Positions 9,861 through 43,246 of a stretch of DNA of 64,000 bases are shown in pieces. The stretch spans positions 1,952,001 through 2,016,000 of the forward strand of contig OZ245011.1 of NCBI GenBank assembly GCA_965223665.1, given 5' to 3'. Origin of the DNA: Nitrospinaceae bacterium (lineage in GTDB: Bacteria; Nitrospinota; Nitrospinia; Nitrospinales; Nitrospinaceae). The notes below the pieces were generated by a model. It searched no databases. It was not told where the DNA came from and saw nothing but the letters and a program-made list of their open reading frames with translations. How positions within the stretch are numbered: position 1 is the first letter of the stretch; every line of letters begins with the position of its first letter. Made by a program: the position numbers and the translations under genes.

Positions 9861-9900
9861 AAAAAAAAGAAAACCCAAAACGTGAGTTTTAGGTTTTCTC
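9861..9900 (-). terminator. Rho-independent terminator of precursor P4
   Basis: A-run followed by AGAAAACC..GGTTTTCT hairpin on the + strand. Confidence 0.65.
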
Positions 9901-9994: not shown

Positions 9995-10186
9995 TTAATC
10001 ACTACAAGAAAAACAAAGTGGCCGCTGATCCGAACAACCCGAACCATAGGGTGTAATGCCACCGAACTCTGAGGGAACGGTAGCCGTGTGCTTATCAGGT
10101 TTTACTGATTTTTCTTGAATGCTCCACTGAAAAAAATTGGAGCGGGTGTGGGGGTTTAAATTTTTGTCATAGTTTCTTTCGATCAT
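9995..10186 (-). CDS. Putative RiPP precursor peptide P4
   Basis: GAGG RBS; leader FQWSIQE; core ITPYGSGCSDQRPLCFSCSD. Confidence 0.85.
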   Translation of the reverse strand: MIERNYDKNLNPHTRSNFFQWSIQEKSVKPDKHTATVPSEFGGITPYGSGCSDQRPLCFSCSD

Positions 10187-10603: not shown

Positions 10604-11602
10604 TTACTCTTTAAGGCGAATCTCCAATCGATTGCGACCATTTTTTTTAGCAAGGTACATGGCCTGATCCGCCCTTTCAAAAAAGGATTCCTCGGAATCT
10701 TGTTCATGAAGAGACGTCAGACCCAAACTGATCGTTACTGAAATGGTTTCATTTTTATAAATCAGATAATCTTTTTCTATACTCGCTCGAATTTTTTCTC
10801 CAATGCGGGTTCCAACTTTCAGAGGACACCCCTTGAGCAAAACAACAAATTCTTCTCCACCATAACGAAAAATAAAATCTGATTGTCTAATCCCATTTCG
10901 AATCGAAGAAGCCACAAGGCTTAGAACTTTATCACCCAGTTTATGTCCATGCGTATCATTGATTTTCTTAAAATGATCAATGTCACATACCATGAGAATA
11001 TTTGAATTTTTCAAACTTTTAAATTCCCGGATGGTTTGCGCTACCTTTAAATTATAGGCGGCTCTATTCAAAGTTTTTGTGAGCGGGTCTATCATCCTTT
11101 CACTTTTAGTTTCTTCAAGTTTTTGGACAAGGTTATTGATAATATCCTGTCTGGTTTCCAATTCTTTTTTTAAATCCTGCGTGGTGGTTTTTATTTCTTG
11201 AAGATCATTAATCAGCTCATCCTTTACCCTGAGAATGTCTTTCAGGTCTTTGGATGTATGGATTTTGCTAAGGTATCCTTCAAAGTTCTGATCGAAATTC
11301 CCCAGGTTTCCCACTGCATCTTTAAGAGCCGTTACCATACTCAAGACAATAACTTTAGCTTCTTCTTTTTCGGATTCTTCAAATTCATTGAGGAGAGTGA
11401 TGCTCTTAAAAAATTCCTCGATACTTTTTCCAAGATCGGTAACAGGCTTAACGTGCACCGCCTTTCTGACCACATCTTCTAACTGGTTTAATTTTAAATT
11501 CAATGGATCGTCACTGGTGAGTTGCCCTCTCGTTCCTTTAATAAAAACTAAAAGAATGTTGCACACTCTATCGGTGAATTCTGCCGGAATAATTCTAGTC
11601 AA
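10604..11602 (-). CDS. Diguanylate cyclase (coiled coil + GGDEF)
   Basis: DPLT..NR, DIDHFKKINDTHGH, RYGGEEF, RADQAMYLAKKNGRN. Confidence 0.92.
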   Translation of the reverse strand: MTRIIPAEFTDRVCNILLVFIKGTRGQLTSDDPLNLKLNQLEDVVRKAVHVKPVTDLGKSIEEFFKSITLLNEFEESEKEEAKVIVLSMVTALKDAVGNLGNFDQNFEGYLSKIHTSKDLKDILRVKDELINDLQEIKTTTQDLKKELETRQDIINNLVQKLEETKSERMIDPLTKTLNRAAYNLKVAQTIREFKSLKNSNILMVCDIDHFKKINDTHGHKLGDKVLSLVASSIRNGIRQSDFIFRYGGEEFVVLLKGCPLKVGTRIGEKIRASIEKDYLIYKNETISVTISLGLTSLHEQDSEESFFERADQAMYLAKKNGRNRLEIRLKE

Positions 11603-11674: not shown

Positions 11675-12547
11675 TTACAAATTATCTTTGGTTTGCGAAG
11701 GAGGGTATCCAAAGTATCGTTTATATTCCCGACTAAATTGAGAGGCACTGGAAAATCCCACTTCGTCCGCTACGACATTGGCATTGATTCCTCTATTGGA
11801 CAGCAAGTCTCTTGCTTTATTGAGACGCACTTTCTTTATATATTGAATTGGAGATTCAGAGGTTATTTCGCGAAAAGATTTATGAAATGCGGAGACACTC
11901 ATAGTCGCTATCTTGGCTAATTCTTTTATTTCCAGTGGCGAGGAAATATTGTCCTGGATAAATCTTAGAACCCTGGCTATTCTTTCAAAACTTGTATTGT
12001 GCTCCACACAATCAAACAGGGCCGATCCATAGGGGCCATTTAAAGCACAATAAATTACCTCACGTAAATGGCAATGGCCTAGTACCCGTGTGTCGTTTGG
12101 ATTTAACAGACATTTTAATAACCTCTCCACAGATTCCGCCATATCTTTATCCAGCGGTACAGAACCGATTCCTCTAAGAGGATTAAATTCCATATAACTT
12201 TTTATGTTTGGCTGCTTTTCTATTTTTGTGACAATATCATGGAGTGTAGTTAAGTTAATATTTATAGAAATTCCCAACACCGGGTACTTGGCAGATCCAT
12301 AGGTTTCACATTCAAAAGGTAACGGCTGGGAAAGGACCAAATAATAGCCTTCATCAAAAGGATAGGTCTCCTTATCCAAAAATCCCATGTTCATTCCCTG
12401 CCCAATCACAATAATACAAGGACGAAGCAGGTTGGGAGCACGTTGTAAACGTTTTGAAACACGAAAAATATTTATGCCGGGAAGTAAGGGATGAATGAAC
12501 TCTTTCCCTCTAGAAAGTTTTTCTAACAAAGCGGCTAGTCTTGGCAT
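11675..12547 (-). CDS. AraC-family regulator (AraC_N, YqhC-like)
   Basis: MSVSAFHKSF..SPIQYIKKVRL..VGFSSASQFSREYKRYFGYPP. Confidence 0.92.
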   Translation of the reverse strand: MPRLAALLEKLSRGKEFIHPLLPGINIFRVSKRLQRAPNLLRPCIIVIGQGMNMGFLDKETYPFDEGYYLVLSQPLPFECETYGSAKYPVLGISININLTTLHDIVTKIEKQPNIKSYMEFNPLRGIGSVPLDKDMAESVERLLKCLLNPNDTRVLGHCHLREVIYCALNGPYGSALFDCVEHNTSFERIARVLRFIQDNISSPLEIKELAKIATMSVSAFHKSFREITSESPIQYIKKVRLNKARDLLSNRGINANVVADEVGFSSASQFSREYKRYFGYPPSQTKDNL

Positions 12548-13908: not shown

Positions 13909-13962
13909 AAAAAAGAAAAGGGGAAAAGTATAAAGCATTTATACTTTCCCCCTTAATTTTTT
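13909..13962. terminator. Bidirectional terminator between P2 and P3
   Basis: GGGGAAAAGTATAAA..TTTATACTTTCCCC stem flanked by A- and T-runs. Confidence 0.75.
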
Positions 13963-14422: not shown

Positions 14423-16660
14423 TCAAGGAAAAGGATGTGGAAACAATATGCCCTTCCTGGGTTTGGTTCCACGGTTTTTAACCTCCGGTAATATTGGTTC
14501 CAGACCATAACCAAATGATATTGGAACCATCCCCTCAATTAAAGCTCGAACAACTTTAATAGTTGACCCGCCACTTAAAGTTAGACAGATCGCCGGAGTA
14601 ATGTCGAGATAATAGCTATTTCTTGCCCGTTCTGTCAACCAATTTTTAAGACTATTTAATTTCTCACAATGGCTCTTCACCCCTGAAAAATCAATAACAT
14701 CGGATCCCCGTAATAAATGGTCTGCCCTTTTGTAGTAACGCCTTTGACTATAAAGGTTTACATGATCCTCTGGAGTCGACGCATTTTCCGGCGAAATTGG
14801 TATCGGATTTCCGATCTGATCGGTCAGGGTCACCATCGACTCCAATTCACTGATTCCATGCTCTAAGGCCGAAAAAGGATCATACCCCGCCGCGGCCGTC
14901 ACTCGCGTCATTTTCTTCGGGGTATTTTGCGAAAACAGTAAAAAACTGGTTATAGGTTCCTGTGACATGACCAAAACCTGTGCCTCCCAGCCAATTTTGT
15001 TGAGTCCACGGATCCTGTTTTGGAGTTCACTCGGAATGGAAGAAAGAATTACTTTAGGAAGGGAAATTTTTCCCAACCAGGTTCGCATGAACTGATCGCG
15101 CTCAATCAATTCCACTATGGCACGGTCCAGCGCTCCTTCAAAGGTGGGGTAAGCCGCCACTCCGGATGTGGAAGTGAACGTATAAGGCAGTTCACTTTTC
15201 TTTCTTCGCTTTTCCATATAATAACTTTTGGGTTTTGAAGAAAAATACACCTGGTCCGCCAAAACCCAATGCGGTTCATCGGTGACCAAATGTTTAACCC
15301 GAACCCATTCATATTTCCTCCGCTTACTAAAAGGAGACAGAGGAAATTCCGGCCGTTCATATTGTTCCTTTGAATATTGAACAAACTTTTCGGGATCCAC
15401 AAAACGATCCAACTCTCCGGCAGTGGCCTTTTTAATATCCCTGGGCATCTGACAGGACAGACGTTCCACCGATTCGGCAATGGCTTTATCATAAGCCAAT
15501 AATGGATCCGCGTCTCGCCCCCAACACCATCCAGAAGATAACTTATCTAAAAATAAATTTGTGCGTGCAAAATAAAATGGTGGTTGATAAGAATTGCTGT
15601 CAAAGTCTACCCAGGAAAATGAAAGATCATAATCTTTATTTATTTTAGACTTTTCCTTTGGAGACAACTGATTCCCGACAACCATTACCAAATACGGGTC
15701 ATGATTCGGAAGCTCCGTGATGGGTTTAATACGTTCATCCATGTAACCGCCCAAAAGATAAACACCGACTCCCATTTCCAGAGCGCACAGTTGAATATTT
15801 TGAGCGGCGTGCCCCGTTTCAATCAAACAATACGAAACTGATCGATTTCCATACTTGGCTCCGGAGTGCGCAAAATTTCCACTGATAACGATAGCACCAT
15901 GGCCGGAAGCCACTCCCGTTGGATCGAGCAAAGCTCTAAATAATTTGTCAGGAGGGCTGGAAAGTTTCTTAAAACCAATCTTACGAGATTTGCCAAAACT
16001 GACATGATACACTCCCGCGTCCAGCTTGTTGGTCTTCCTCCATTGAATCCAGGTAAACTCCAAAGGATAAACACCTCCACCGGAAGGAACTGTTCGCCCG
16101 GCTCTTTGATCATACTTCCCCAGTTTTTTGGTGGCGTCCAACACTCCGTAACCGGCATACAGCAACGCCGTTATTTGATCCATTGACATGGCCGTGCGGT
16201 CAAATTCGCGATCGGTTCCCCTGTTCTGCAGCGATTCTATAAATTTGGTTTTAGGAGGACGAAAGGTTTTTGCTTTGGGATCCAGTTTTTGGACACGGTC
16301 ACTGGCCGCTTTCGCCAATTCAAAGGGCAACTCCGGAGGAACGTCCGAAGGGTAAGGTTGCGGGTTATGCACCCACGACCATTGATGAGAAATCCAATAC
16401 TTGGTAGGAACCAGAATTCCCCGGGAAACCAGATCATTCAAAAAACTAACGATCGTCTCTCGGTCAAAACTCTTGGAAAGACCGTCCACAATCGTTTTAA
16501 AATCACGTTTGCCATCGACGGTTTCAAAAAGGTCCTTCAATAAACTTTTGGGAGCGCGAATAGTAAAACTTTTACTACTTTTCATTACGGTTAATCTGTC
16601 ACCGGCTAATTTGACAGAAGAGGCAAAATTCAGGGGAGTATTATTTTCGATTTTTGACAT
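14423..16660 (-). CDS. Fused RiPP recognition element + SagB/ThcOx FMN dehydrogenase + YcaO cyclodehydratase
   Basis: N-terminal wHTH-like DGKRDFKTIV..FLNDLVSRGILV; RTVPSGGGVYPLE, KYGNRS, ETGHAAQN; YcaO AIAESVER, TSGVAA..VELIERD; C-terminal PHPFP. Confidence 0.92.
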   Translation of the reverse strand: MSKIENNTPLNFASSVKLAGDRLTVMKSSKSFTIRAPKSLLKDLFETVDGKRDFKTIVDGLSKSFDRETIVSFLNDLVSRGILVPTKYWISHQWSWVHNPQPYPSDVPPELPFELAKAASDRVQKLDPKAKTFRPPKTKFIESLQNRGTDREFDRTAMSMDQITALLYAGYGVLDATKKLGKYDQRAGRTVPSGGGVYPLEFTWIQWRKTNKLDAGVYHVSFGKSRKIGFKKLSSPPDKLFRALLDPTGVASGHGAIVISGNFAHSGAKYGNRSVSYCLIETGHAAQNIQLCALEMGVGVYLLGGYMDERIKPITELPNHDPYLVMVVGNQLSPKEKSKINKDYDLSFSWVDFDSNSYQPPFYFARTNLFLDKLSSGWCWGRDADPLLAYDKAIAESVERLSCQMPRDIKKATAGELDRFVDPEKFVQYSKEQYERPEFPLSPFSKRRKYEWVRVKHLVTDEPHWVLADQVYFSSKPKSYYMEKRRKKSELPYTFTSTSGVAAYPTFEGALDRAIVELIERDQFMRTWLGKISLPKVILSSIPSELQNRIRGLNKIGWEAQVLVMSQEPITSFLLFSQNTPKKMTRVTAAAGYDPFSALEHGISELESMVTLTDQIGNPIPISPENASTPEDHVNLYSQRRYYKRADHLLRGSDVIDFSGVKSHCEKLNSLKNWLTERARNSYYLDITPAICLTLSGGSTIKVVRALIEGMVPISFGYGLEPILPEVKNRGTKPRKGILFPHPFP

Positions 16661-16847: not shown

Positions 16848-17030
16848 CCCTCTTTTTAAAGAGAACTTTGCATAACCAGGGATTATTGAATAAACAAGTT
16901 CAACAAAAGAGCGGAGACCGATGTTCGCCCTCTTTCCTAAAGAGGGTCGGGGTGATTCACCTCCAGGGGGTTTATATTTTCTGACTAATGCAGGGAGGTC
17001 TCCTCTTTAAAGAGGGCTGGGGTGATTTAC
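16848..17030. repeat. Cluster of REP-like palindromes CCCTCTTT..AAAGAGGG-n-GGGGTGATT
   Basis: Copies near 16848, 16928 and 17001; another at 35515. Confidence 0.65.
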
Positions 17031-17109
17031 ATTTAAGGGCTTTATTCCAATTTTATATTTGAGTGTAATTCTTTTTGAGAAACCAACGAGTGATTAGATA
17101 ACTTTTTAA

Positions 17110-17928
17110 ATGGAAAACTCAAAAGAAGAAACCAACAATCCAAAAAAGAGTACTCCCATAAATCTATTGTGGACTGGAGGATGGGATTCTACATTTCGAC
17201 TGCTGGAGCTTTTAATTATAGAAAAAAAAAGCGTCCAACCTTATTACATTGTGGATCATGAAAGAGCATCCACACTCTATGAAATGAAAGCCATGCAAAC
17301 CATCAAGGAAATTCTCTTCATTAAATTTCCGGAAACTCAAGAGCTGTTATTCCCCACCATCACCCAACGCCGGAATCAGATCAAACCCAATAAAGAAATT
17401 ACTCAAAAATGGAAACAATTTTATAAGGAAATAAAATTAGGCAGCCAATACGATTGGATTCCTAGGTTTGCCGAGGAACAGGGTCTTTATGATCTGGAAC
17501 TGGGCCATGAAAAACCCTACAAGCCACGTCCCCTGGATGAAATCATTGATCCCAATATTATTGGTGAAGGGCACGAATGCCGAGTGACGAGCAACCCCAC
17601 CCGACCCATGGTCACTCTGTTTAAATATTTTCGTTTCCCAATTTATTTTGTCACAAAAGCAAAAATGGAGAGGATCTCTCGCGAAAACGATTTCTTTGAT
17701 ATCATGCAAAACGTCTGGTTTTGCCATCGCCCCAGAAGCAACGGCACCCCCTGCGAATTTTGCCGACCCTGCAGAGTGGCAAAGAAATCCGGGTTTTCCC
17801 ATGGCCTGCCCCCCTCGAACTGGTTGCGCGACCAATACTTAAAACTCTGTTACAAAGTTTCCTCTGCTTGGGACCAGTGCCTGCACATCCTTAAACGCAT
17901 TTCCCGTAAACTGAAAAACTTTTCCTGA
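17110..17928 (+). CDS. PP-loop (QueC-like) nucleotide-binding protein
   Basis: LLWTGGWDST PP-loop; WFCHRP..PCEFCRPC Zn-type Cys cluster. Confidence 0.75.
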   Translation: MENSKEETNNPKKSTPINLLWTGGWDSTFRLLELLIIEKKSVQPYYIVDHERASTLYEMKAMQTIKEILFIKFPETQELLFPTITQRRNQIKPNKEITQKWKQFYKEIKLGSQYDWIPRFAEEQGLYDLELGHEKPYKPRPLDEIIDPNIIGEGHECRVTSNPTRPMVTLFKYFRFPIYFVTKAKMERISRENDFFDIMQNVWFCHRPRSNGTPCEFCRPCRVAKKSGFSHGLPPSNWLRDQYLKLCYKVSSAWDQCLHILKRISRKLKNFS

Positions 17929-18017
17929 GTAATTCCAAAATTCAGAAATTGATTTAGAATAGGCCTAAAATGTAAAACCAAAAATTTTTGCCTTGATCTA
18001 TGGTAGGAGGAAAACCC

Positions 18018-19286
18018 ATGCCTAATAAAATAAAATTACTATTAATGGTATTTTTTGTCTCTTTGTTTTTTAACGGTTGCTCCAGTTTTGGAAAAGGGGT
18101 CGTCGAGGGACTCCTTGAGAATTCAGAAAAAGAAGATAAAAGAGCTTGTCAAATTTGGAGTAAAGGATTTGAAGGTATTGGAGCAAGCATTGAAAAAACT
18201 CAAGGTAAGACTAAGGTCTTAATGGTCCATGGAGTTGGAAGTCACATTCCCGGATACTCTACGATTCTATTAGAAAAATTATCTCAAAAACTAGATCTTC
18301 CTTTAATTGATATTCCTTTTAAGGAATTAACCATATCTGAAATCAATGATCCCTCAAAAAATTTGGGTAATTTGCGACTAAATAGATTAATCAGTAGAGA
18401 CAAAGAGAGGGAACTTTTATTTTATGAGCTAACTTGGTCTAGAATTAGTCAATCTGAAAAAGAAGTTTTAAATTATGATAATTCCGGTCTGTATTCCTTT
18501 CGACGTGCTAATGTTAATAACGCTTTGAAAAAGTTTTCGAATGACTCAATTTCGGACCCAATGATTTATTTAGGGGAAAAACAGGAGGATATTCAAAAAT
18601 CTGTAATACAAAGTGTTTGTTGGATGATTTCTTATGGGTGGAATACATTTCCTTCTGGTGAACATAAACTCTGCCAATTCAACAGCCCCGGGATATTAGA
18701 AAACGCAAAAAAAGATGATTATATTTTTATTTCACATAGTTTAGGCAGCAGAATTACCATTGACGCTCTTCAAAAAGTCGTAGGGTTGGTAAATAACAAA
18801 AATGTTCAAAAGAAGTTCCCCGAAGTAGAAAAACTTCACCACGAAATTCAAAATAGAGTTGTTACTATTTTTATGTTTTCTAATCAATTACCTTTATTGC
18901 AATTGGGCCGCCCATTACCAGAGATTTTGAATGAGAATGATAAATATTGTTTACCAAATGGAAGTCACTTTTCCGATCGATTTGCCAATCAAACTCATAT
19001 TATTGCATTTAGCGATCCCAATGATTTATTAAGTTACTCTATTCCCGCGGGATTCGAAAATAATTATCTTGATTCACGAATGTGTACTAAAGTAAGCAAT
19101 GTTAGTATCAATGTAGCTCATGTGGTAGATGTTTTCGGTGTCAGTGAAGTTGCCAATCCCATAGAAGCGCATGTGGGTTATGACAGTGATGATCGAGTGG
19201 TGGAATTAGTTGCTCATGGATTAAATAATCAAAATATTACTCCCATTATTAAAGAAAGATGTAAATGGATGGAGTTAGTGAAATGA
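18018..19286 (+). CDS. Lipoprotein with alpha/beta-hydrolase-like motifs
   Basis: AGGAGG RBS; lipobox FNGC; VHGVG, SHSLGS, SDPNDLL, AHVGY. Confidence 0.75.
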   Translation: MPNKIKLLLMVFFVSLFFNGCSSFGKGVVEGLLENSEKEDKRACQIWSKGFEGIGASIEKTQGKTKVLMVHGVGSHIPGYSTILLEKLSQKLDLPLIDIPFKELTISEINDPSKNLGNLRLNRLISRDKERELLFYELTWSRISQSEKEVLNYDNSGLYSFRRANVNNALKKFSNDSISDPMIYLGEKQEDIQKSVIQSVCWMISYGWNTFPSGEHKLCQFNSPGILENAKKDDYIFISHSLGSRITIDALQKVVGLVNNKNVQKKFPEVEKLHHEIQNRVVTIFMFSNQLPLLQLGRPLPEILNENDKYCLPNGSHFSDRFANQTHIIAFSDPNDLLSYSIPAGFENNYLDSRMCTKVSNVSINVAHVVDVFGVSEVANPIEAHVGYDSDDRVVELVAHGLNNQNITPIIKERCKWMELVK

Positions 19287-19296
19287 ATAAATTTCA

Positions 19297-20601
19297 ATGG
19301 AGGATCAAAGAATGAAATTCGCCAAGTTAATCATCTGGAAACCAGAAAGAAATATTTTATTTAATTTTTTTATTTTCGCCTTGAGTCTTACCATTCCCTC
19401 CCTATCATTTTCTAATAATTCATTTACAACACCAGCCTCCTCATCTACAAAAATATCCGAATATGAAACTCCTCCCATACTAAAAGCAAGCCAATATTTA
19501 CCTTCGAAATTACTTAAGAGTAAATACCATAAGGTAGAAGAAGATATTGACACCTTTGGGTTTACCAATTCATATCGAATTAATTCAAAGTTTTTTATTT
19601 CGGAAGTTAGAGGAGATGATTTGCTTCGTGAGAGGATTCAAGAAGTACATGCCCTGGCAACACTATTAAAAATGAAAAAGACAAACAAGTTTATTGATGC
19701 TGCCACACGGTCCGCTCTCTCTCCTGTATCTTTTGCAAAAAATCTTATTCTTCGACCGGTAGATACTATCTCTGGAATTCCTCAAGGTATTTGGAGGTTT
19801 TTTTCCCGAGTGGGAGAAATGACTGGAGGAAAGCGAGGACAAGCAGAGGATGGCATTTCCAAAGAATTAATTGGGTTCTCGGCGGTAAAAAGAAAAATTG
19901 CTCATCAGTTAGGTGTTGATGTTTATTCCACAAATCGCACTCTTCAGAAAGAATTAAATAGTGTTTCCTGGGCTTCTTTTTCGGGTGGTTTTGTAGTGAG
20001 CATGGCCATAACTCCACTTAGAGTTTTAAAGCTTACAAAAACAGCAAATAAAATGACAAAAATTTTGAGAGACAAAGCTCCAGAAGATTTGAGAAAATTG
20101 AACCGAGCCAAACTCAAAAAATTTATATCTAATGATAAACTTGTCGAAAAGTTTTTAGAACACCCCTATTTTTCTCCACGACATGAAACTTTTCTTGTAG
20201 CCGCATTAGAAAATATGCAGGGAACTCAAAATTTGGATAAATTCGTCTATCGAGCTTATAAAGCTCAATCTTTTGAGGATGCTTTTATTTTCCAACGTAT
20301 CGCAGAGATATTAGATAAATATCATAATGAAGTTTCACCAATTCAGAAAATAGCAATTGAACCTTCAAGAAATTTTCCGGTAGCAATTACAAAAGATAAC
20401 AAATTAGTCATCGCGTTATTAGTAGACTATGCTGTTTGGTCCAAAATTGCTGCCAAGTGGGCCCAGGACTTAACCCGAGCAAATAATAGAGTGAACCCAA
20501 ATCGAAAAATAGAACTATTGATTACTGGCACATTGTCTCCAAGAGCCAGAAACGAATTAAAATCCTTAGGGATATCCGTCAAGGAAAAAGTTTTAGATTA
20601 A
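19297..20601 (+). CDS. Exported hypothetical protein
   Basis: 434-aa ORF with N-terminal hydrophobic segment, in operon with the upstream gene. Confidence 0.75.
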   Translation: MEDQRMKFAKLIIWKPERNILFNFFIFALSLTIPSLSFSNNSFTTPASSSTKISEYETPPILKASQYLPSKLLKSKYHKVEEDIDTFGFTNSYRINSKFFISEVRGDDLLRERIQEVHALATLLKMKKTNKFIDAATRSALSPVSFAKNLILRPVDTISGIPQGIWRFFSRVGEMTGGKRGQAEDGISKELIGFSAVKRKIAHQLGVDVYSTNRTLQKELNSVSWASFSGGFVVSMAITPLRVLKLTKTANKMTKILRDKAPEDLRKLNRAKLKKFISNDKLVEKFLEHPYFSPRHETFLVAALENMQGTQNLDKFVYRAYKAQSFEDAFIFQRIAEILDKYHNEVSPIQKIAIEPSRNFPVAITKDNKLVIALLVDYAVWSKIAAKWAQDLTRANNRVNPNRKIELLITGTLSPRARNELKSLGISVKEKVLD

Positions 20602-23604: not shown

Positions 23605-24672
23605 GTGCGGAAGATGAAAAAGATATTTTATTTAGTGACTCTGGGTTGTTGTTTAGCGTTTCTTCCTGTTATTGCCGCGGCAAAAACAATTCACTTAAAT
23701 GATTGCTCCGGAACTAAACTTTCTTTTAAAACCGCCAAGGCCGCGTGCAAATCCGGCAAACATCCCGGCCAGACTATAGTTAAATGCAATAAAAAAGGAG
23801 ATATAAAGAACACCAGACGTTGCAGTACCGATGGACAAAAAAAAGGGATTTACGAAGACAGTTGCACCGGAACCCCAACAGGATTTAAAGATTTAGTCAA
23901 GGCCTGCAAATCGGGAAACCATTTCGGTCAGTTGCTCGTTAAATGCAAAAACGGAAAGGAAAAGAAACGGATGCAGTGCGAATCCGCCGGAATGACTTTA
24001 AAGAAAACGGTCATTTTTAAGAATCGATGTGGCGGTGATCCCATTTCCGGAAAGAATTTAAAAAAGGCGTGCAAAAATAATACAGGGGAAACCCTGGTGA
24101 AGTGCGTGCGCAAAAATAATATTTGGAAACCCAAAAAATCCATGCTTTGTCATGGAAACCGGGACCGGTTTAAATTTAAATTTTGTTCACCCAATGAGCG
24201 GCAAACGCTCATTGATGATTATGAATGGGCCGAAAACCGAGTGGATATTGTTCTCAATGATTTAAATAACTGGTTTGCTTCTAATCCCTCAGTAGACAAA
24301 AAACTGCGGAAAAAAATGGAAAAAGTGCAAAAGAAATTAAGAAAAATTCAAACGGCCATGGACCGCCCCCGGACCTATGTTTGCCGGGCCAACAAAAATC
24401 GATGTGGCCGCGCCAACGCCCATACCATGTGGACCGGACACAAGGTTAAAATTTGCGATCGTTATTTTTTCAAATCCGGAGCCGCAAATCAACCGGAGCG
24501 TGGGTCCATTCTCGTACACGAAATTTCTCATCATAAAGTAGAAACCAATGATAAAGGCACCGAGCATGGAGGATGTGCCAGTCCCAGCCTGGCCTCGGCG
24601 AGTAGTAACTTTCATAAGCAAGCCGAGTATTATGAACACCTTATAGAATGCGGGCTTTATATTCCCAATTAA
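23605..24672 (+). CDS. Secreted M35-like (aspzincin) metallopeptidase with N-terminal Cys-rich repeats
   Basis: Signal peptide (likely ATG 23614); 3 repeats C..KACK..VKC..C; KICDRYF, ILVHEISHH..TND, AEYYE. Confidence 0.75.
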   Translation: MRKMKKIFYLVTLGCCLAFLPVIAAAKTIHLNDCSGTKLSFKTAKAACKSGKHPGQTIVKCNKKGDIKNTRRCSTDGQKKGIYEDSCTGTPTGFKDLVKACKSGNHFGQLLVKCKNGKEKKRMQCESAGMTLKKTVIFKNRCGGDPISGKNLKKACKNNTGETLVKCVRKNNIWKPKKSMLCHGNRDRFKFKFCSPNERQTLIDDYEWAENRVDIVLNDLNNWFASNPSVDKKLRKKMEKVQKKLRKIQTAMDRPRTYVCRANKNRCGRANAHTMWTGHKVKICDRYFFKSGAANQPERGSILVHEISHHKVETNDKGTEHGGCASPSLASASSNFHKQAEYYEHLIECGLYIPN

Positions 24673-24689
24673 TTCAGGGATAATTTATT

Positions 24690-25463
24690 ATGTTCCAAAT
24701 CCTATCGATTAGTTTCATATATATAACGATACTTTGTGGCACCGCCACAGCCAGTCCAACTGATAATTCCACTGCTCCTCCTGAAGCAATGGTTTTAATT
24801 CCGGCGGGAGAGTTCCAAATGGGAAGTCCCCGGGACATAGGAGAGGATGATGAACACCCGCAGCACTCCGTTTATGTAAATTCGTTTTTTATAGATATCA
24901 CGGAGGTGACTCAGGCGAACTATGAAAGGGTGATGGGAAAAAATCCTTCTCATTTTAAAGGAACGAATTTACCCGTAGAAAAAGTGACCTGGAGTGAAGC
25001 CCAGGCGTACTGCCAGGCCCTGGGCAAGCGATTGCCGACCGAAGCAGAATGGGAAAAAGCGGCAAGAGGAAAAAATAATTCGGTTTTTAGCTGGGGCAAT
25101 GAAGTGACGTCACAGGGCGGCAACTACTGCGATAAACAATGTGAAAAAAAGTGGAAGTCGGACCGGTTTGACGACGGTCACAGCAATACAGCGCCAGTAA
25201 AAAGTTATGCTCCGAATGATTATGGATTGTTTGACATGGGGGGCAATGTGTATGAGTGGGTGAAGGATTGGTACCACAAGGACACTTATAAAAAAAGTCC
25301 CTACGAAAATCCAAAAGGCCCCGAGAGCGGAAAATTTAAAGTGATGCGAGGCGGATCCTGGGATGTCAGCCCCGCCGTGTTACGCAACGCGTATCGTTCC
25401 GGCCTGGCGCCGGATTTTCGCAGCTACTCCGTCGGGTTTCGCTGTGCCAAATCCACCCAATAA
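24690..25463 (+). CDS. Formylglycine-generating enzyme (SUMF1/FGE-sulfatase) family protein
   Basis: IPAGEFQMGS, RLPTEAEWEKAARG, NDYGLFDMGGNVYEW, RGGSW, GFRC. Confidence 0.92.
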   Translation: MFQILSISFIYITILCGTATASPTDNSTAPPEAMVLIPAGEFQMGSPRDIGEDDEHPQHSVYVNSFFIDITEVTQANYERVMGKNPSHFKGTNLPVEKVTWSEAQAYCQALGKRLPTEAEWEKAARGKNNSVFSWGNEVTSQGGNYCDKQCEKKWKSDRFDDGHSNTAPVKSYAPNDYGLFDMGGNVYEWVKDWYHKDTYKKSPYENPKGPESGKFKVMRGGSWDVSPAVLRNAYRSGLAPDFRSYSVGFRCAKSTQ

Positions 25464-35548: not shown

Positions 35549-35943
35549 CCGCCTGGGGTTTCCGGTCCCGGCCAAAGGCAACAGTTCCCCTCCAATAAAA
35601 TCCCCAACACGATACAACTTTCCACAAATTATTTCTCTTCCGATACCTTCTAAAAACCCAAAGGTTGAAAAAGGTTTCGAAACCATATCGGCTAAGCCAT
35701 ATCTTTTTTTCAGAACTCCATCAAAATCAACTACTTAAAAAATAGTATTTGACATGATTTGGATTATAGAATAATTTGCAAAAGACTAAAATAGTTTTGA
35801 TTTGATAGTAATACACAGCGAACACAAACTGGTTTGAGGTGAGAGATCTCTAAGGCAGCATATCGCTCAAAATTGCTCACGCCCAAGTCTCGCCTTCCAG
35901 CCATTCATTTTAACGGTGGTTTTTCTCGAACTCGGTGGTTCTT

Positions 35944-38900
35944 ATGAAAACGAAACATGTCAGCTTAGCAATCAGTTTTATTCTTTCTCTATTCTTATTC
36001 ACTTCCATCGCCTTGGGCGCAACCGTAACGACCGAACTGCGCAACGGCGAAAACGGCTATACCGGAACGCAGGACACTTACGTCCGCGAAGCCCTGCCCA
36101 ATGATAATTTTGGCGGCGAATCCGGCTTCCGCGCTGACGGAGACAATGGAGGTGAAGACCTCGCATTCATTTCATGGGATCTGTCCTCCATCCCCACCGA
36201 TGCTGTTTTGCAATCGGCGGTGATCCGTTTCGATGTGTTCGATACCACCACCGGCAGTTATGAATTGCTGGAGATGTCCGGGTCCTGGGATGAAGACACC
36301 CTCACCTGGAACACGCTTAACACCGGCGACATTGGCACCACCGCTTTGGCCACCATCACCAGTCCACCGACCGGTACTTTGGATGTCACACTCAACGCCA
36401 CCGCGTTAACTTTAATCACTGAATGGATCGACGGAACAACCACTAATAACGGCTTTGCTTTGCAAAGCACCGGCACCACCGACGGAATCGTGATGTCCTC
36501 CAGTGAGAAAAGCACCGGAACCAAAAGGCCCCGACTCTCTTTAACGTACACCACCAACACCACCACCGATACCTTTCAGGAAGGCGTGGCCGGATACACC
36601 GGCACCGAAGATACTTATGTGCATGAGTCCGATCCCACGTCCACCCATGGCAGTGAATCCGGTTTTCGTGCGGATGGCCAGAAAACTGTCGGCGGCGGCG
36701 TGGGAGAAGACATCGGGTTCGTCACGTGGGATATCTCTTCCATTCCCTCGAACGCGACGGTGTTATGGGCCAAGATTGATTTTGAAATTTACGACGGCAG
36801 CGCCGGCACTTATGACCTTTTCGAAATGCAGGAAACCTGGGACGAAGCAACCCTGAACTGGAACAACTTGAACACGGCGAATATCGGCTCAACTTCTTTG
36901 GCGGGAATTCCCAGCACCACACCCGGGCCTATAGAAATCGTTCTCAACAGCACCGGGTTGAACGTTCTGCAAGACTGGATCGATGGCACCGCCACCAACT
37001 ACGGCTTCGCCATTCGCAGTGCCGGAACGTATGACGGTATCACTTTCAACTCCAGTGAAAAATCCATAGTCGACACCCGACCGCGACTGACCGTACGCTA
37101 CAACACCCAGGCCCAACAGGTCGCCCCGGTCACATTCAATCCGAACGGCGGCACCTTTGTCGGCAATGTCTCGGTGACGTTATCCACCACCACCGCAGGA
37201 GCGGATATTTATTATACGTTGGATGGGTCCACTCCCACCACCAGCTCCACCCTGTACACCGGAGCGATTTCCCTAGGCGCAGCAACCGAAGTGAACGCGT
37301 TCGCGGTGAAATCCGGGCTCACCGACAGCGACGTAACCAGCGCCGAGTTTATCCGAATTCCGGAGGACCCTGCATTGGTGGCCAATGATATAGACAACAC
37401 TCTGCTTTACGACGTGGGCAAGAACAGTGAATTTTTATATACCGGTAGCGACCCGATTCAAACGGGAGTGGATCCCATGGACATCGACGCAGTACGCGCC
37501 TCCGTCATTCGCGGGCAGGTGTTGCAGCTCGACATGAATGCCGCCGACCCGGCCAACGCACCACCGATTCCATTAGGCGGTGCCACGGTGACAATCCTCG
37601 GTCATGACGACCCGGCAGACCCGGAGTACTACGGGCAGACCGTCACCCGCGCCGACGGGTTTTACGACATGGCCGTGAACGGTGGCGGACAACTGACAGT
37701 CAATGTGAAACGATCCGGCTACCTACCCTCCCAGCGCAAAGTCGAAGTCCCCTGGCATGATTTTGCAGTGGTGGAGAATATGTTGTTAATGGAAAAAGAT
37801 CCGAATGCAACTGTAATTAATCTTTCTACGATTACTGAGGCTACCGAAGCACGAGGCAGCGTGGTTACGGACGTTGACGGTACACGTCAGGCGACGGTGT
37901 TATTTTTACCCGGTACCACAGCAGAACGGGTGTACGAAGACGGAACTAAGGAAGATATTTCCAGTCAAATCACGGTTCATGCAACCGAATACACCGTAGG
38001 CGATAATGGGCCGATGGCGATGCCGGCCTTACTGCCCGGCACTTCCGCTTATACGTACATGGTTAATTTTACGGTAGACGAAGCCGAGAGTGTCGGTGCC
38101 CCTTTTGTGGAGTTTAGCCAGCCGGTGTACGGTTACGTTGAAAACTTTTTGGACGTGAAAGCGGGACAAGTAGTTCCGAACGGTTACTATGATCGGGTGC
38201 AAGGAAAATGGATTCCGGAGGACAATGGTCTCGTGGTCAAAATTATGAGTATTGATACTACGGGAACCACTCCTATTGCTGAGTTGGATTTGGATGGTGA
38301 TAATGACCACGATAATGATGATGATACCCTTGAAACAACTTATAACTTTTCCACTGAAGAACTTGAAAAACTGGCATCCCTCTACCAGGCCGGTGACAGT
38401 ATGTGGCGTGTTCCGATGGAACACTTTTCTGATTGGAATTATCCCATCGCGGTTGTCATAGATGCCATTCTTGATGTTTCGGCAGAAGAGGGAAAAACGG
38501 TGAATGAAAATGTCTCTGCCGTTTGTGACATTTGCAAAAGATCCACTATCCAGGTGCAAGGCCAAATCTATGGTGAAGAAGTCGCCATTCCCGGAACACC
38601 GTTCACCTTGCATTACAACAGTGATCGGGTGCGGGGTACCAAAACAGGCGCTACGCTAGATATTCCCCTCATCGACTCCCGATTAAATTTAGGCTCCAGC
38701 AGTATTGTAAAAATTCACTTAACAGTAGACGTAGCTGGAGTTCGAAAAACGGAGGTCTTTGATCGTGTTTCCGGAAATAGCATTCCGGATATCACACCGA
38801 CCCTGGTACACCGGTTCGAATGGGATGGATTAGACGCTTATGGTCGTGATGTGGTGGGAGTAGCCGGGGCAAAAATCACTATTGGTTACGAGTACCCCAC

Positions 38901-39960
38901 GGCTGAATATGGTGCGCCCGCTCAGTTTGCTACCCCTTCACCGAGTGTGAAATTGGAAGCTTCTGATGGCGTAAGCAATGTGTTATCACGGACCAATGTT
39001 ATTTTCAGCCAGTCTTATATCAAACAAGTCAACGTCAATGATTTCCGTCCCCTCGGTTTAGGCGGTTGGACCGTAGACGCCAACCACGTTTATGAATTTT
39101 TCAGTCCGGGTCTGCATCTCGGTCCCGGTCCCAGAAGAACAACTAAAACTCTAAATACGGCGGCCAGCATCTTTGCAGACACGCAAAGTGGAGGAGTAAC
39201 TTTTCCGGATTGGCTAGATGTTGATTCTGTAGGAAACGTTTTTTTTGCAACCAACTGTCATATTTGGAAAGCTGATCTTTCTGGGAACATTACCGACATC
39301 ATGGGATTGAACGGACCGAATTGTACCGGCCCCCCTCCGTTGAGTGGTGATGGCCAATTGGCCAGAAATCAGCCACTAATCAATGTTAGAGGTTTGGATG
39401 TAGATGACGAAGGTAATATATATTTTTATGATGCCGATAATACCCTCCCTCTCCAACCTGTTATTGGAAAAATAGACACCAGTGGAATTCTTCATATTAT
39501 TTTAGGAGGAAATGATCGCGGATTTTCCGGGGAGGGTGGTCCGTCCATTAACGCCCAGGTAAATGCTCTAGGCGAAATGGTAGTGGACAAGGAGGGAAAT
39601 ATTTACCTCGCCGATTCTGAAAACAATCGAATCCGCAAAATAGATACCGCAGGAATCATCACCACAGTCGCAGGGAATGGAAACCAGGGTAGTTCCGGAA
39701 TGACCAATACTCAATTAGGGCATGAAGGACCCGCTACGGATTTCACGCTTGGAAAACCCAATTATTTAACAATTGATAGTAAAGGAAATCTCTATGCAGC
39801 TTCAAGTCATTTGAAGAGAATCATTAAAATTGATACAAATGGAATTGCTACTGTTCTTGTGGGTAGCCATCACCCCTTAACGGATCCATTTTTGGAAGGA
39901 GTGGAAGGGAGTGGAAGGGACCAGTTTCTCATTCCATTCAATTTCTGCTCTCACCATTGA
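35944..39960 (+). CDS. Teneurin-like/RHS protein, N-terminal part (signal peptide, 2x DNRLRE, Fn3/chitobiase-like, carboxypeptidase-regulatory-like, NHL repeats); frameshifted
   Basis: DTYV..WDLSSIP twice; IYYTLDGSTPT; TRADGFYDMAVNGGG; WDGLDAYGR; GLGGWT; NHL GNIYLADSENNRIRKI. Confidence 0.85.
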   Translation: MKTKHVSLAISFILSLFLFTSIALGATVTTELRNGENGYTGTQDTYVREALPNDNFGGESGFRADGDNGGEDLAFISWDLSSIPTDAVLQSAVIRFDVFDTTTGSYELLEMSGSWDEDTLTWNTLNTGDIGTTALATITSPPTGTLDVTLNATALTLITEWIDGTTTNNGFALQSTGTTDGIVMSSSEKSTGTKRPRLSLTYTTNTTTDTFQEGVAGYTGTEDTYVHESDPTSTHGSESGFRADGQKTVGGGVGEDIGFVTWDISSIPSNATVLWAKIDFEIYDGSAGTYDLFEMQETWDEATLNWNNLNTANIGSTSLAGIPSTTPGPIEIVLNSTGLNVLQDWIDGTATNYGFAIRSAGTYDGITFNSSEKSIVDTRPRLTVRYNTQAQQVAPVTFNPNGGTFVGNVSVTLSTTTAGADIYYTLDGSTPTTSSTLYTGAISLGAATEVNAFAVKSGLTDSDVTSAEFIRIPEDPALVANDIDNTLLYDVGKNSEFLYTGSDPIQTGVDPMDIDAVRASVIRGQVLQLDMNAADPANAPPIPLGGATVTILGHDDPADPEYYGQTVTRADGFYDMAVNGGGQLTVNVKRSGYLPSQRKVEVPWHDFAVVENMLLMEKDPNATVINLSTITEATEARGSVVTDVDGTRQATVLFLPGTTAERVYEDGTKEDISSQITVHATEYTVGDNGPMAMPALLPGTSAYTYMVNFTVDEAESVGAPFVEFSQPVYGYVENFLDVKAGQVVPNGYYDRVQGKWIPEDNGLVVKIMSIDTTGTTPIAELDLDGDNDHDNDDDTLETTYNFSTEELEKLASLYQAGDSMWRVPMEHFSDWNYPIAVVIDAILDVSAEEGKTVNENVSAVCDICKRSTIQVQGQIYGEEVAIPGTPFTLHYNSDRVRGTKTGATLDIPLIDSRLNLGSSSIVKIHLTVDVAGVRKTEVFDRVSGNSIPDITPTLVHRFEWDGLDAYGRDVVGVAGAKITIGYEYPTAEYGAPAQFATPSPSVKLEASDGVSNVLSRTNVIFSQSYIKQVNVNDFRPLGLGGWTVDANHVYEFFSPGLHLGPGPRRTTKTLNTAASIFADTQSGGVTFPDWLDVDSVGNVFFATNCHIWKADLSGNITDIMGLNGPNCTGPPPLSGDGQLARNQPLINVRGLDVDDEGNIYFYDADNTLPLQPVIGKIDTSGILHIILGGNDRGFSGEGGPSINAQVNALGEMVVDKEGNIYLADSENNRIRKIDTAGIITTVAGNGNQGSSGMTNTQLGHEGPATDFTLGKPNYLTIDSKGNLYAASSHLKRIIKIDTNGIATVLVGSHHPLTDPFLEGVEGSGRDQFLIPFNFCSHH
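39901..39920 (+). repeat. Perfect 10-bp tandem duplication (GTGGAAGGGA)x2 causing the frameshift
   Basis: Removing one copy fuses both ORFs: FLEGVEGTSFSFHSISALTIDKDDNIYF. Confidence 0.9.
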
Positions 39961-42900: not shown

Positions 42901-43246
42901 TATTTGTTCTCGTTATGGAGAAGGTTATTGCAGTTTAGCAAGACCTATTTGTAAGGTGACAAATAAAATCGAAGATTTGTCTGAAGGAGGTCCTTTTGAT
43001 CCCTTTGATAAACCTAGAAATAGATTTCAATGTATGCGCCAATGCCTCCAAGAAAAAATTGAAAATCGATTATCAAGGGGTATTTGCAATGTAGACCAAG
43101 AAGACATTTCTGGCACTGGCACAGAAATTATTACTGATCATTATGATTGCCATAAAGGTTGTTTAATGAATCCCGAGAACCCATTTAATCCTGATGGGCC
43201 TGATTTGCCAGATCGGGATCCTAGATTACCACCAAGTCCGTTTTAA
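39911..43246 (+). CDS. Teneurin-like/RHS protein, C-terminal part (YD shell, RHS core, Cys-rich toxin tip)
   Basis: YD repeats; PFGYAGGLYD..RDYDPEVGRF..DPI..NLYGYVLNDPINFTDQLGL followed by a variable tip. Confidence 0.9.
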   Translation: MEGTSFSFHSISALTIDKDDNIYFANRAESIGQTIQFRKMNKQGIVTLLNSRSEGCDQGSEAPFTNNEPLGNTCIENWDLAVGPDGNVYSTARHIHKILKYSSSLPEFTAGELALPSEDGTQIFKFDATGRHIETRNALTGATIFTFNYDASGRLIQITDGDGDVTDFVRNTEGDLTKIVAEDGQETLIEYDANGYLNKVTLPETAEIYQMQYTAEGLMTQFTNPRGLSSDIIYNALGQMEKETEAAPDGGFLETIRTDDADGYEVSAKTELNRESIFRVETDVAGNTVRINTDPSGLVTTTTELTDDSVETVTPDGTMVTVTKTPDERFGMLAPLTSLNVDTPGGLSSEIIADRNVTLDGNNNVLTQIDTLTINNRPLTSTFDKNQLKVTNLSPEGRQTENAIDSQGRITKEIVPGFEDRNFTYDASGRLASISQGTGADERLTTFTYNLDGFLESINEPMSRTFSFEYDSNGRVTKQILPGSRDVVINYDLNGNVTSITPPGQLAHLFNYSSVDLEAGYSAPAVVGGGTNSTMVTYNFDKQPVLITRPDSQTISFNYDGGGRLQNTLIPRGTFTYNYSPLTGQLDQITAPDGGTLGFSYDGQLRLSSTWGGPSGSVSGSVSQIYNSDGLVTSRSVNGGNTISFQYDQDLLVTQAGDLTLQYSSNNNMLQGTTLGITNDSLTYNLFGEVSSYTADINSSTVFSMQFIRDKVGRIIKKTETVSGVTHVYDYAYDSADRLLSVSQDGLILNTYTYDLNGNRNNGIYDEQDRLTSMNGIDYTYTANGELLSRTEAGQTTDYDYDVFGNLLSVNLPGGTLIEYVYDGQNRRIGKKVSGTLERAWLYKDGFNPVAELDGSGNLVSRFVYGNRNNIPAYLIKNGTTYRIISDDLGSPRLVIDKDTGTIAQEMHYDEWGNVLTDTNPEFQPFGYAGGLYDPDTNLVQFGFRDYDPEVGRFTNKDPIRFAGQDTNLYGYVLNDPINFTDQLGLYGTNSCGFYDDICSRYGEGYCSLARPICKVTNKIEDLSEGGPFDPFDKPRNRFQCMRQCLQEKIENRLSRGICNVDQEDISGTGTEIITDHYDCHKGCLMNPENPFNPDGPDLPDRDPRLPPSPF

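Follow-up and report, generated by a model that had tools for sequence, protein, structure and literature searches.

The stretch of DNA considered here, referred to throughout as the window, comprises 64,000 nucleotides (nt) from a Nitrospinaceae bacterium (assembly GCA_965223665.1, contig OZ245011.1, positions 1,952,001-2,016,000 of the forward strand). Its principal subject is a single ATG-started open reading frame (ORF) on the reverse strand at 14423..16660, stop codon included, the translation of which is a protein of 745 residues (P0001) that unites three domains known from enzymes of peptides that ribosomes make and that are modified after translation (RiPPs). Residues 1-92 (16385..16660) are predicted to form a PqqD-like winged helix of the RiPP recognition element (RRE) type, residues 145-329 (15674..16228) a SagB-type dehydrogenase dependent on flavin mononucleotide (FMN), and residues 381-745 (14426..15520) a YcaO cyclodehydratase with the Pro-rich tail FPHPFP, all encoded on the reverse strand. 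Three short genes for candidate precursor peptides follow directly downstream of the enzyme gene, a fourth lies 4 kb further on, and a QueC-like gene is divergent from it. An earlier note, made from the letters of the window, had drawn attention to the fused chain; the four precursors, the large family to which the enzyme belongs, the QueC-like companion gene and a separate E1-like C protein 607 kb away go beyond what it described.

Domains and conserved residues of the fused enzyme

The middle domain of P0001 is matched by the Pfam family Nitroreductase (PF00881) at residues 145-329, with an expectation value (E) of 2.3e-14 and 54.4 bits against a cut-off of 23.5, and by the NCBIfam SagB model (TIGR03605) at residues 160-329, with 82.5 bits against a cut-off of 78.4. 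The full SagB-type domain that the earlier note had described is therefore present, and the motifs that it had picked out are found in the translation, with PSGGGVYP at 192-199, the Lys-Tyr pair within AKYGNRS at 268-274 and ETGHAAQN at 281-288. Both marks of a SagB-family azoline dehydrogenase, a model score above the cut-off and the Lys-Tyr pair, are thus displayed by P0001; a passage in PMC8442711 describes Lys-Tyr as the catalytic pair in McbC.

The C-terminal domain is matched by YcaO (PF02624) at residues 381-711 with E 2.3e-34, and its 119.6 bits against a curated cut-off of 25.7, over profile positions 2-324 of 325, place P0001 in the YcaO superfamily. It is the compact YcaO domain that had been anticipated, ending with FPHPFP at residues 740-745, and this tail is the Pro-rich C-terminal motif of azoline-forming D proteins of the thiazole/oxazole-modified microcin (TOMM) systems. 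A proline-rich C-terminus is characteristic of azoline-forming YcaOs according to a passage of PMC8442711. The best YcaO-type match among NCBIfam models is SagD (TIGR03604), at residues 389-745, with positions 9-377 of its 377 covered.

A family profile built from 128 full-length members (alignment A2) was compared with the sequences of the PDB. Its dehydrogenase part matches 3eo7 (3.3e-40), BmdC, McbC and ThcOx/CyaGox, and its YcaO part matches TruD (1.3e-32), LynD (1.1e-30), MusD (1.5e-29) and the M. jannaschii YcaO (1e-26), with McbD and the E. coli YcaO as weak matches. The full-length AlphaFold2 model of P0001 has a mean predicted local distance difference test score (pLDDT) of 94.2 and a predicted template modelling score (pTM) of 0.93, with 655 of the 745 residues at pLDDT >= 90, and the top Foldseek matches to this model are TruD (3.9e-18), LynD, MusD, M. 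jannaschii YcaO, BmdC, ThcOx, McbC and McbD.

Within the same 128-member alignment, the dehydrogenase domain conserves R147 (126/128), K269 (111/128) and Y270 (127/128), while Glu396, Glu517, Glu520, Arg521 and His742 (E396, E517, E520, R521, H742) of the YcaO domain are found in all 128 members, E399 in 127 and E605 in 125. Invariant or nearly so in this set are E396, E399, E517, E520, R521, E605 and E607, which may correspond to the adenosine triphosphate (ATP)/Mg2+ ligands of solved YcaOs. The C-terminal tail is similarly constrained, P741 being kept in 116 members, H742 in 128 and P743 in 125. The ratio of non-synonymous to synonymous substitution rates (dN/dS), measured against an orthologue of 86% identity, is 0.125 in the N-terminal domain, 0.055 and 0.015 in the linkers, 0.078 in the SagB domain and 0.139 in the YcaO domain, and by this measure all five segments of P0001 are under purifying selection.

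The chain contains no E1-like or ocin-ThiF domain, as had been claimed for it. Neither of the E1-like NCBIfam models (TIGR03603 and TIGR03882) matches P0001 at E <= 1, and the protein has only two linkers of about 50 residues each (93-144 and 330-380), so that an E1-like domain of about 230 residues cannot be concealed in it. As far as the sequence goes, the proposal that recognition, cyclodehydration and oxidation are housed in one chain of 745 residues holds, with all three domains present and the family-invariant residues retained.

The N-terminal RRE domain

The N-terminal domain displays the same topology in the full-length model and when modelled alone (pLDDT 91.3), with strands at residues 9-12, 15-19, 22-26 and 31-35 followed by helices at 38-47, 54-61 and 67-79. 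An RRE fold is defined by a three-stranded sheet, then three helices, superposable on solved RREs, and the predicted structure has these features. A profile built on the N-terminal 82-100 residues from 24 members of the family (alignment A4), searched against 177,635 PDB sequences, has as its top three matches PqqD (3g2b; E 0.0038), the PqqD part of PqqCD (5sxy; 0.0061) and the RRE protein PbtF (8t19; 0.051). The Pfam PqqD model recognises 11 of these 24 N-domains at E <= 1, the lowest value being 6.7e-5, PaaA-like_N recognises 9, and alignment of the 24-member profile by hhalign with a PqqD reference profile, made from 14 domains of genomes of the same phylum that pass the Pfam cut-off, gives a probability of 96.4% (E 1.1e-9) over 47 columns, corresponding to residues 40-86. 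P0001 taken alone has weak RRE-type matches only, to PaaA-like_N (E 0.068), PqqD (PF05402; E 0.28) and TIGR03859 (E 0.04), and scores 12-13 bits with Pfam PqqD, under the cut-off of 23.4.

The ten best Foldseek rows for the 92-residue domain are all chains of RiPP enzymes bearing leader-binding domains and include TruD (TMq 0.68, root-mean-square deviation (rmsd) 2.2 A), ThcOx, MadB, TbtB, MibB, LynD, McbB and TbiB1, none of the matches reaching E <= 1e-3 (best 8.6e-3). A structure search independent of Foldseek (VIA), carried out over 48,161 chains, recovers MibB (Z 9.3), LynD residues 6-97 (Z 8.6; 82 residues aligned at an rmsd of 2.5 A), ThcOx 1-100 and TbtB (Z 8.3 each), BmdC 2-86 (Z 7.9), the PbtF RRE (Z 7.6), MccB 1-86 (Z 7.3), NisB 134-232 (Z 7.1), TbiB1 (Z 6.7), PqqD (Z 6.0) and McbB 12-92 (Z 5.8). 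Z-scores of 7-9 are in the middling range of the tool's own scale, and it is by the identity of the proteins matched, not by the scores, that these structure matches carry weight. On the predicted structure, the N-terminal domain is an RRE-type winged helix. The earlier note had staked its case on an RRE fold for this winged-helix-like terminus of about 90 residues, and such a fold is what the profile alignment, the AlphaFold model with its strands and three helices, and the fold matches to RRE-bearing enzymes all indicate.

A domain of this kind might nevertheless be a vestigial remnant, in which case the leader would be bound at another site of the enzyme or would go unrecognised. Of RREs fused to the dehydrogenases of cyanobactin, linear azol(in)e-containing peptide (LAP) and thiopeptide clusters, a passage of PMC7470986 says that they "may also be vestigial", and the PqqD-model scores of P0001 itself are sub-threshold. 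Set against this, the domain is the sole RRE of the locus, is retained in 134 of 153 relatives, is confidently modelled, and is conserved both in its residues (G50 in 126/128 members, P37 in 105/128) and by its dN/dS; moreover, the enzyme is accompanied by a conserved leader motif in distant family members too. A vestigial role is hence considered very improbable.

Precursor peptides and operon signals

The presence of a substrate beside the enzyme is suggested by four small ORFs on the same strand. Precursor 1 (65 residues, P0007; 14215..14412) begins 10 nt past the enzyme stop codon and displays the leader KSFNWSIQEE and the core end PLPYGCGSC. It is followed by precursor 2 (61 residues, P0008; 13984..14169), with leader KGFDWSIQEQ and core GCTPP...LGCECN...PLPYGCECN, and precursor 3 (66 residues, P0009; 13581..13781), with leader KGFEWSVQEE and core PTGC...AYGCGS...SFSCNC. 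Precursor 4 (63 residues; 9995..10186), the most distant of the group, has the leader NFFQWSIQEK and the core ...YGSGCSDQRPLCFSCSD. The four leaders share the motif [KR]-x-F-x-W-[STN]-[IV], and the cores contain 3-5 Cys each, mostly after Gly. No Pfam or NCBIfam model matches any of them. A hidden Markov model (HMM) of the leader recognises precursors 1 to 4 with E 1.4e-8, 9.4e-8, 2e-5 and 3.1e-7, respectively.

The same leader is found well beyond the window. Phe10 and Trp12 (F10 and W12) are invariant in 17/17 aligned precursors, drawn from the window and from loci whose enzymes are 27-86% identical. The leader HMM yields 25 hits at E <= 0.002, spread over 17 metagenome loci, the window (4), a sister genome described below (L008; 3) and L135, against a best value of 0.24 in the reversed-sequence control, and it also finds loci outside its model, some with Ser-only cores (e.g., AGSSGK tails). 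A simple leader pattern with downstream Cys is found in 19/81 loci as opposed to 5/81 reversed controls. All four credible hits of a precursor-alignment search of the 4.35-Mb genome are the ORFs of the window. Of 120 genomes of the phylum, only the three that have the fused gene contain the leader family, and all 8 of its hits lie beside that gene, a comparison in which the search model contains rows from 2 of the 3 positive genomes, while the third (G049) and the 117 negatives are independent of it. Because the leader is shared by such distant loci, the enzymes are seen to stay paired with one family of precursors, in which Phe and Trp are invariant, even where they share only some 27-35% identity among themselves.

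Signals of transcription accompany the precursors. A strong terminator-like hairpin with a 17-bp stem and a T-run is found after precursor 2 (13918..13954, reverse strand) and another, with a 15-bp stem, after precursor 4 (9867-9900). The best sigma-70-like match of the region (11/12) lies within the 3' end of the enzyme gene at 14609..14638, on the reverse strand, some 200 nt upstream of precursor 1; as promoter-like sites in the region are no more numerous than in shuffled sequence, this is weakly indicated as a possible internal promoter for the precursors. Two further genes of the same strand lie between precursors 3 and 4, namely an AraC-type regulator (11675-12547) and a GGDEF diguanylate cyclase (10604-11602). 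Both are absent from the corresponding position in the sister genome, and they are tentative members of the cluster.

Distribution of the fused family

An exhaustive HMMER search with the enzyme returned 6182 proteins at E <= 0.001, of which 252 are at E <= 1e-30. Architectures were assigned to 153 re-aligned relatives (148 of the 150 listed, plus 5 from another search). The alignment runs from the N-domain through the end of YcaO in 134 of them, 6 comprise SagB and YcaO, 3 comprise YcaO alone and 10 are other partial matches, including 5 N-terminal fragments (469-591 residues) and one protein of 881 residues in which the match ends at residue 553. The xHPx tail closes 143 of the 153. The fused enzyme is, on these sequences, a large family and not a one-off. 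An assembly or frameshift artefact is ruled out by the 134 relatives with the same three domains together with the 86% identical orthologue from a Nitrospinaceae metagenome-assembled genome (MAG).

This MAG (L008) is the sister genome referred to above, in which the enzyme is followed by three orthologous precursors, with an orthologue of precursor 4 at L008:9177-9383. The third genome of the phylum with the fused gene (G049) belongs to another family and has that gene split across two contig ends. Directly after it, on contig C132, lies a precursor (L135:1003-1278) in which a KAFNWSIEE leader precedes [S/T/N]PVSC repeated six times in tandem; a gene of the sodium:solute symporter family comes next. 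The fused form is thus found in 3/120 genomes of the phylum, and separate YcaO and/or SagB genes in 27 others.

The nearest relatives outside the genus (P0011, P0013 and P0015; 951-968 residues, 37-38% identity) are metagenomic and place a GNAT acetyltransferase ahead of the RRE, SagB and YcaO domains. The comparison of neighbourhoods drew on 80 metagenome loci. A DUF2268 zinc peptidase is encoded in 6 of the 9 closest of them (L044, L052, L057, L059, L061, L089), while other branches have a 2-oxoglutarate (2OG)-Fe(II) oxygenase downstream (L053, L064, L077, L098) and a weakly ATP-grasp-like ORF upstream (L053, L070, L077). Judged by these gene contents, fused homologues reside in at least two other cluster types, one with DUF2268 and one with the oxygenase and the ATP-grasp-like protein.

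The family is borne almost entirely by metagenomes and MAGs, and its members carry generic names in their sources ([quoted passage not shown], "YcaO-like family protein", "SagD family component"); for these reasons its products are unexplored, and the family itself is apparently unstudied. Fusions of C with D proteins, of oxidases with proteases and of RREs with oxidases are described in passages of reviews. Full-text literature searches returned no description of an RRE-SagB-YcaO fusion, which leaves an earlier mention elsewhere possible.

A canonical cluster in the same genome

The genome that harbours the fused gene also encodes a canonical LAP cluster in the order A-C-D-B at G000:C1:1357927-1361448 (L136:2428-5949), 607 kb away. 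It consists of a precursor of 77 residues (L136:2428-2661) with an unrelated leader and the core SSCVCICCTAS, an E1-like C protein of 343 residues (G000:C1:1358196-1359227) that carries an N-terminal RRE itself, a YcaO D protein of 457 residues ending in PHPFP and a SagB B protein of 289 residues. All E1-like genes of the genome lie outside the fused locus, the nearest being the one about 607 kb off, and Pfam scans of the ORFs around the fused gene detect no ThiF/E1-like family. The same holds for relatives. No E1-like or ocin-ThiF gene was found within about 6 kb of the fused homologue in any of 22 metagenome loci (180 ORFs, of which 125 were scanned at E <= 1e-3 and 55 at E <= 1e-5, with five very long ORFs left out), and Pfam finds no ThiF among 68 of those 180 flanking ORFs.

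The fused domains are only distantly related to their discrete counterparts, with 25% identity between the fused YcaO and the D protein and 27% between the fused SagB and the B protein, values so low that an origin of the enzyme by recent, local joining of this genome's B and D genes is rejected. The N-domain and the N-terminus of the canonical C protein are co-linear but weakly alike (25% identity, E 0.22). A quick tree sets the fused YcaO apart from the D protein by branches of 100% support in the Shimodaira-Hasegawa-like approximate likelihood ratio test (SH-aLRT); it has no outgroup, and two of its rows (L015 and L018) sit on a branch of length 3.8 and are probably mis-extracted. All that is drawn from this tree is that the fused YcaO domain and the discrete D protein of this genome do not form a sister pair.

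The existence of an E1-like protein elsewhere in the genome raises the possibility that the fused enzyme is not self-sufficient, but relies for efficient cyclodehydration on the canonical C protein acting in trans, the fusion then adding a second, substrate-specific D-B module. In a passage of PMC4603692, C proteins of canonical systems are said to raise cyclodehydratase activity by orders of magnitude. A C-D-B cluster is found in 3/3 of the Nitrospinota genomes with the fused gene, in a phylum where a match of any kind to the family profile occurs in just 30/120 genomes; this co-occurrence is suggestive, and the three genomes represent two independent lineages only. Such dependence is nevertheless rather unlikely. 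The canonical cluster is equipped with a precursor of its own whose leader is unrelated, and its C protein with an RRE of its own, as the fused protein has its own conserved RRE. The low identity and the tree separation of the two YcaOs, as well as the 22 metagenome loci in which no E1-like gene lies near the fused homologue, also argue for independence. The accepted YcaO partners, as listed in a passage of PMC7136475, are E1-like, ThiF-like and TfuA proteins, and a precedent for partner-free azoline formers is offered by the YcaOs of bottromycin biosynthesis, which in the relevant passage of PMC8442711 "function without a partner protein". That the fused enzyme is likewise independent of a partner is what we infer.

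Proposed function

The locus is probably a compact azole-forming RiPP cluster, comparable to those of LAPs, in which the whole modification machinery is one polypeptide, a self-contained thiazole synthetase. The RRE would dock the leader stretch [KR]-x-F-x-W-x-[IV] of the four precursors, perhaps as an added β-strand, as is hinted by the alternating F/W/I pattern. Using ATP and Mg2+, the YcaO domain would then activate the amide before each target Cys and close the thiazoline, mostly in Gly-Cys contexts (PYGCGSC, PYGCECN, PTGC, LGCEC), and the fused SagB/FMN domain would oxidise the thiazolines to thiazoles. In the chain, the dehydrogenase sits where the E1-like domain stands in the RRE-E1-YcaO heterocyclases of the cyanobactin type, and since nitroreductase-fold proteins are dimers, it may also supply a dimerising scaffold. 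Four adjacent short precursors (61-66 residues) with Cys/Ser/Thr-rich cores are what a LAP/TOMM cluster would contain. The definition of such a cluster in PMC4603692 further calls for an E1-like C together with a YcaO D within the cluster, and here the C protein is missing from the fused locus; in its expected action, the locus is a LAP/TOMM azole synthetase that yet falls outside the formal definition.

Several observations weigh against this interpretation. The SagD score of the YcaO domain (138.2 bits) is under the trusted cut-off of 219.25, and the N-domain has the sub-threshold PqqD score, the Foldseek values and the middling Z-scores reported above. The canonical cluster in all three genomes, the activation ascribed to C proteins and the suspected vestigial nature of dehydrogenase-fused RREs have to be counted here as well. 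Finally, no leader peptidase or exporter is encoded near the enzyme, which leaves a finished, secreted product unexplained.

The chemistry might also be other than azole formation, the product bearing azolines only, thioamides or amidines, with the nitroreductase-type domain serving in another dehydrogenation (e.g., of an amino acid to a dehydro-amino acid) or as a scaffold, and the QueC-like neighbour in backbone or C-terminal activation. Precedents exist in PflD, a RiPP enzyme with a nitroreductase domain that forms dehydrophenylalanine (PMC12636437), and in streptamidine biosynthesis, where a dehydrogenase cannot be dispensed with and yet the product shows no net oxidation (PMC8442711). The family profile does match the thioamide-forming M. 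jannaschii YcaO, some distant members are accompanied by precursors with Ser-only or nearly Cys-free cores, and in all three Nitrospinota genomes the QueC-like gene adjoins the fused gene despite differing surroundings. The best YcaO matches, however, are the azoline-forming heterocyclases TruD, LynD and MusD; the Pro-rich C-terminus of azoline formers is retained together with an H742 present in every member, as is the Lys-Tyr pair of azoline dehydrogenases; no TfuA is encoded in the genome; the precursor cores are rich in Gly-Cys; and none of the 80 metagenome loci contains the QueC-like gene. Taken together, these features make a different chemistry decidedly unlikely, and thiazole formation remains the favoured assignment.

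A broader form of that assignment is advanced more tentatively, and is held to be possible rather than probable. It proposes that the family consists of one-protein azole synthetases that are truly self-sufficient without E1-like or ocin-ThiF proteins, with a flavoprotein domain in the scaffold position, and that it is coupled to an unnamed superfamily of precursors with the [KR]-x-F-x-W-x-[IV] leader and, in Nitrospinota, also to a QueC-like tailoring enzyme (acting, e.g., in carboxylate or backbone carbonyl activation).

Comparison with characterized systems

The cyanobactin heterocyclases TruD, LynD, PatD and MusD are the closest in plan, being single chains with an N-terminal RRE, a middle domain and a C-terminal YcaO. 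TruD, LynD and MusD are the best matches to the fused YcaO domain in both sequence and structure, and the fused N-domain superposes on LynD residues 6-97. The difference lies in the middle domain, which is E1-like in the cyanobactin enzymes and a SagB-type FMN dehydrogenase in the fused enzyme, so that the chain includes the oxidation step and has no E1-like body. Short, linear precursors with a different leader are a further distinction, and the PatA/PatG proteases of cyanobactin systems are lacking.

With the canonical LAP/TOMM systems, namely McbBCD of microcin B17, SagBCD, BalhCD/BcerB and the genome's own A-C-D-B cluster, the fused enzyme would share, by analogy, ATP-dependent cyclodehydration of Cys/Ser followed by FMN-dependent oxidation. 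Short precursors with Gly-Cys-rich cores are common to both, McbC and McbD are among the matches of both the family profile and the model, and the PHPFP C-terminus is found in the discrete D protein of this genome as in the fused enzyme. These systems employ three separate subunits with the RRE borne on the E1-like scaffold (C/McbB), whereas here there is a single chain with no E1-like domain.

ThcOx/CyaGox from cyanobactin pathways and BmdC from the bacillamide non-ribosomal peptide synthetase (NRPS) pathway resemble the first half of the enzyme, an RRE-like domain preceding a nitroreductase-fold oxidase, and BmdC aligns with family profile positions 51 to 321. ThcOx possesses two RRE-like domains. 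In both proteins the chain stops after the oxidase, while the fused enzyme continues into YcaO; RREs of the ThcOx/BmdC type are suspected to be vestigial in a passage of PMC7470986, whereas that of the fused enzyme is the only one available. The azoline- or amidine-forming YcaOs of bottromycin pathways act on a follower-peptide substrate. They stand alone, with neither an RRE nor a dehydrogenase fused to them, and resemble the enzyme described here in that they are reported, in PMC8442711 and PMC4603692, to work without an E1-like, ocin-ThiF or TfuA partner.

Azole-forming RiPP enzymes are used to rigidify peptide backbones and confer protease resistance. The systems employed in practice consist of several subunits or depend on an oxidase supplied separately. 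If the proposed function is true, a chain of 745 residues with its own docking domain and a short, defined recognition motif would make a simple biocatalyst, and the conserved F and W of [KR]-x-F-x-W-x-[IV] point to a leader tag that might be transplanted onto other peptides. With a dehydrogenase in the E1-like position, the family would also make it possible to probe the true contribution of an E1-like domain, and because both architectures are present in this genome, the canonical and the fused systems may be compared directly in one host background.

Neighbouring genes and other features of the window

The divergent QueC-like gene (17110..17928, forward strand) encodes a PP-loop protein of 272 residues (P0010) with a TGGWDS motif and a four-Cys cluster. 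Its QueC matches are weak (Pfam E 0.017, PADLOC E 0.004) and are located at both ends of the protein. The corresponding neighbours are 90% identical in the sister genome and 58% identical in G049 (L137:4923-5753). A role in a defence system is unsupported, since PADLOC gives only this weak QueC match and nothing for the adjacent ORFs. P0010 belongs to a multi-copy family. One paralogue (50% identity) shares its 4.24-Mb contig, the sister genome contains three (45-47%), and relatives at E <= 0.001 number 376 and come from many phyla, most of these relatives being unnamed. Between the fused and QueC-like genes lie two 38-nt units of 79% identity (16938-16975 and 17008-17045) with the internal palindrome ..AAAGAGGG.., which look like elements of the repetitive extragenic palindromic (REP) type.

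The earlier note had stated that no TfuA, protease or exporter is adjacent, and this proved correct, with TfuA absent genome-wide and no protease or transporter family detected by Pfam in 15 neighbouring ORFs within about 7 kb of the fused gene. DUF2268 is also absent from this genome, and a peptidase of that family is thereby ruled out as the leader peptidase here. The peptidase nearest to the fused gene is an M35 aspzincin, resembling lysine-specific metallopeptidases and encoded at 23605-24672 within a forward-strand segment (23605-25463), about 7 kb from the enzyme, that continues with a gene of the FGE-sulfatase/SUMF1 type.

Rfam detects no RNA family in the window. A predicted lipoprotein of 428 residues is encoded at 18000-19286 on the forward strand, with a signal peptide ending in FFNGC and a GxSxG-type HSLGS motif; nothing in Pfam, NCBIfam or PADLOC matches it above threshold, and weak matches have E 0.007-0.17. 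Its neighbour, an ORF of 434 residues (19297-20601), has an NCBIfam match at E 0.01 only. Further along, at 35935-43246 on the forward strand, two ORFs of 1341 and 1111 residues that overlap by 50 nt match a bacterial "teneurin-like protein" of solved structure (PDB 9ifo/9pt5), the first over residues 357-933 (E 1e-163) and the second over residues 1231-2145 (E 1e-136), with matches of the second to Rhs/type VI secretion system (T6SS) shells as well. The longer ORF starts in a stretch with a G+C content of 0.52-0.55, compared to about 0.40 elsewhere, and the pair may represent one gene, split or frameshifted, or else an island gained by horizontal transfer.

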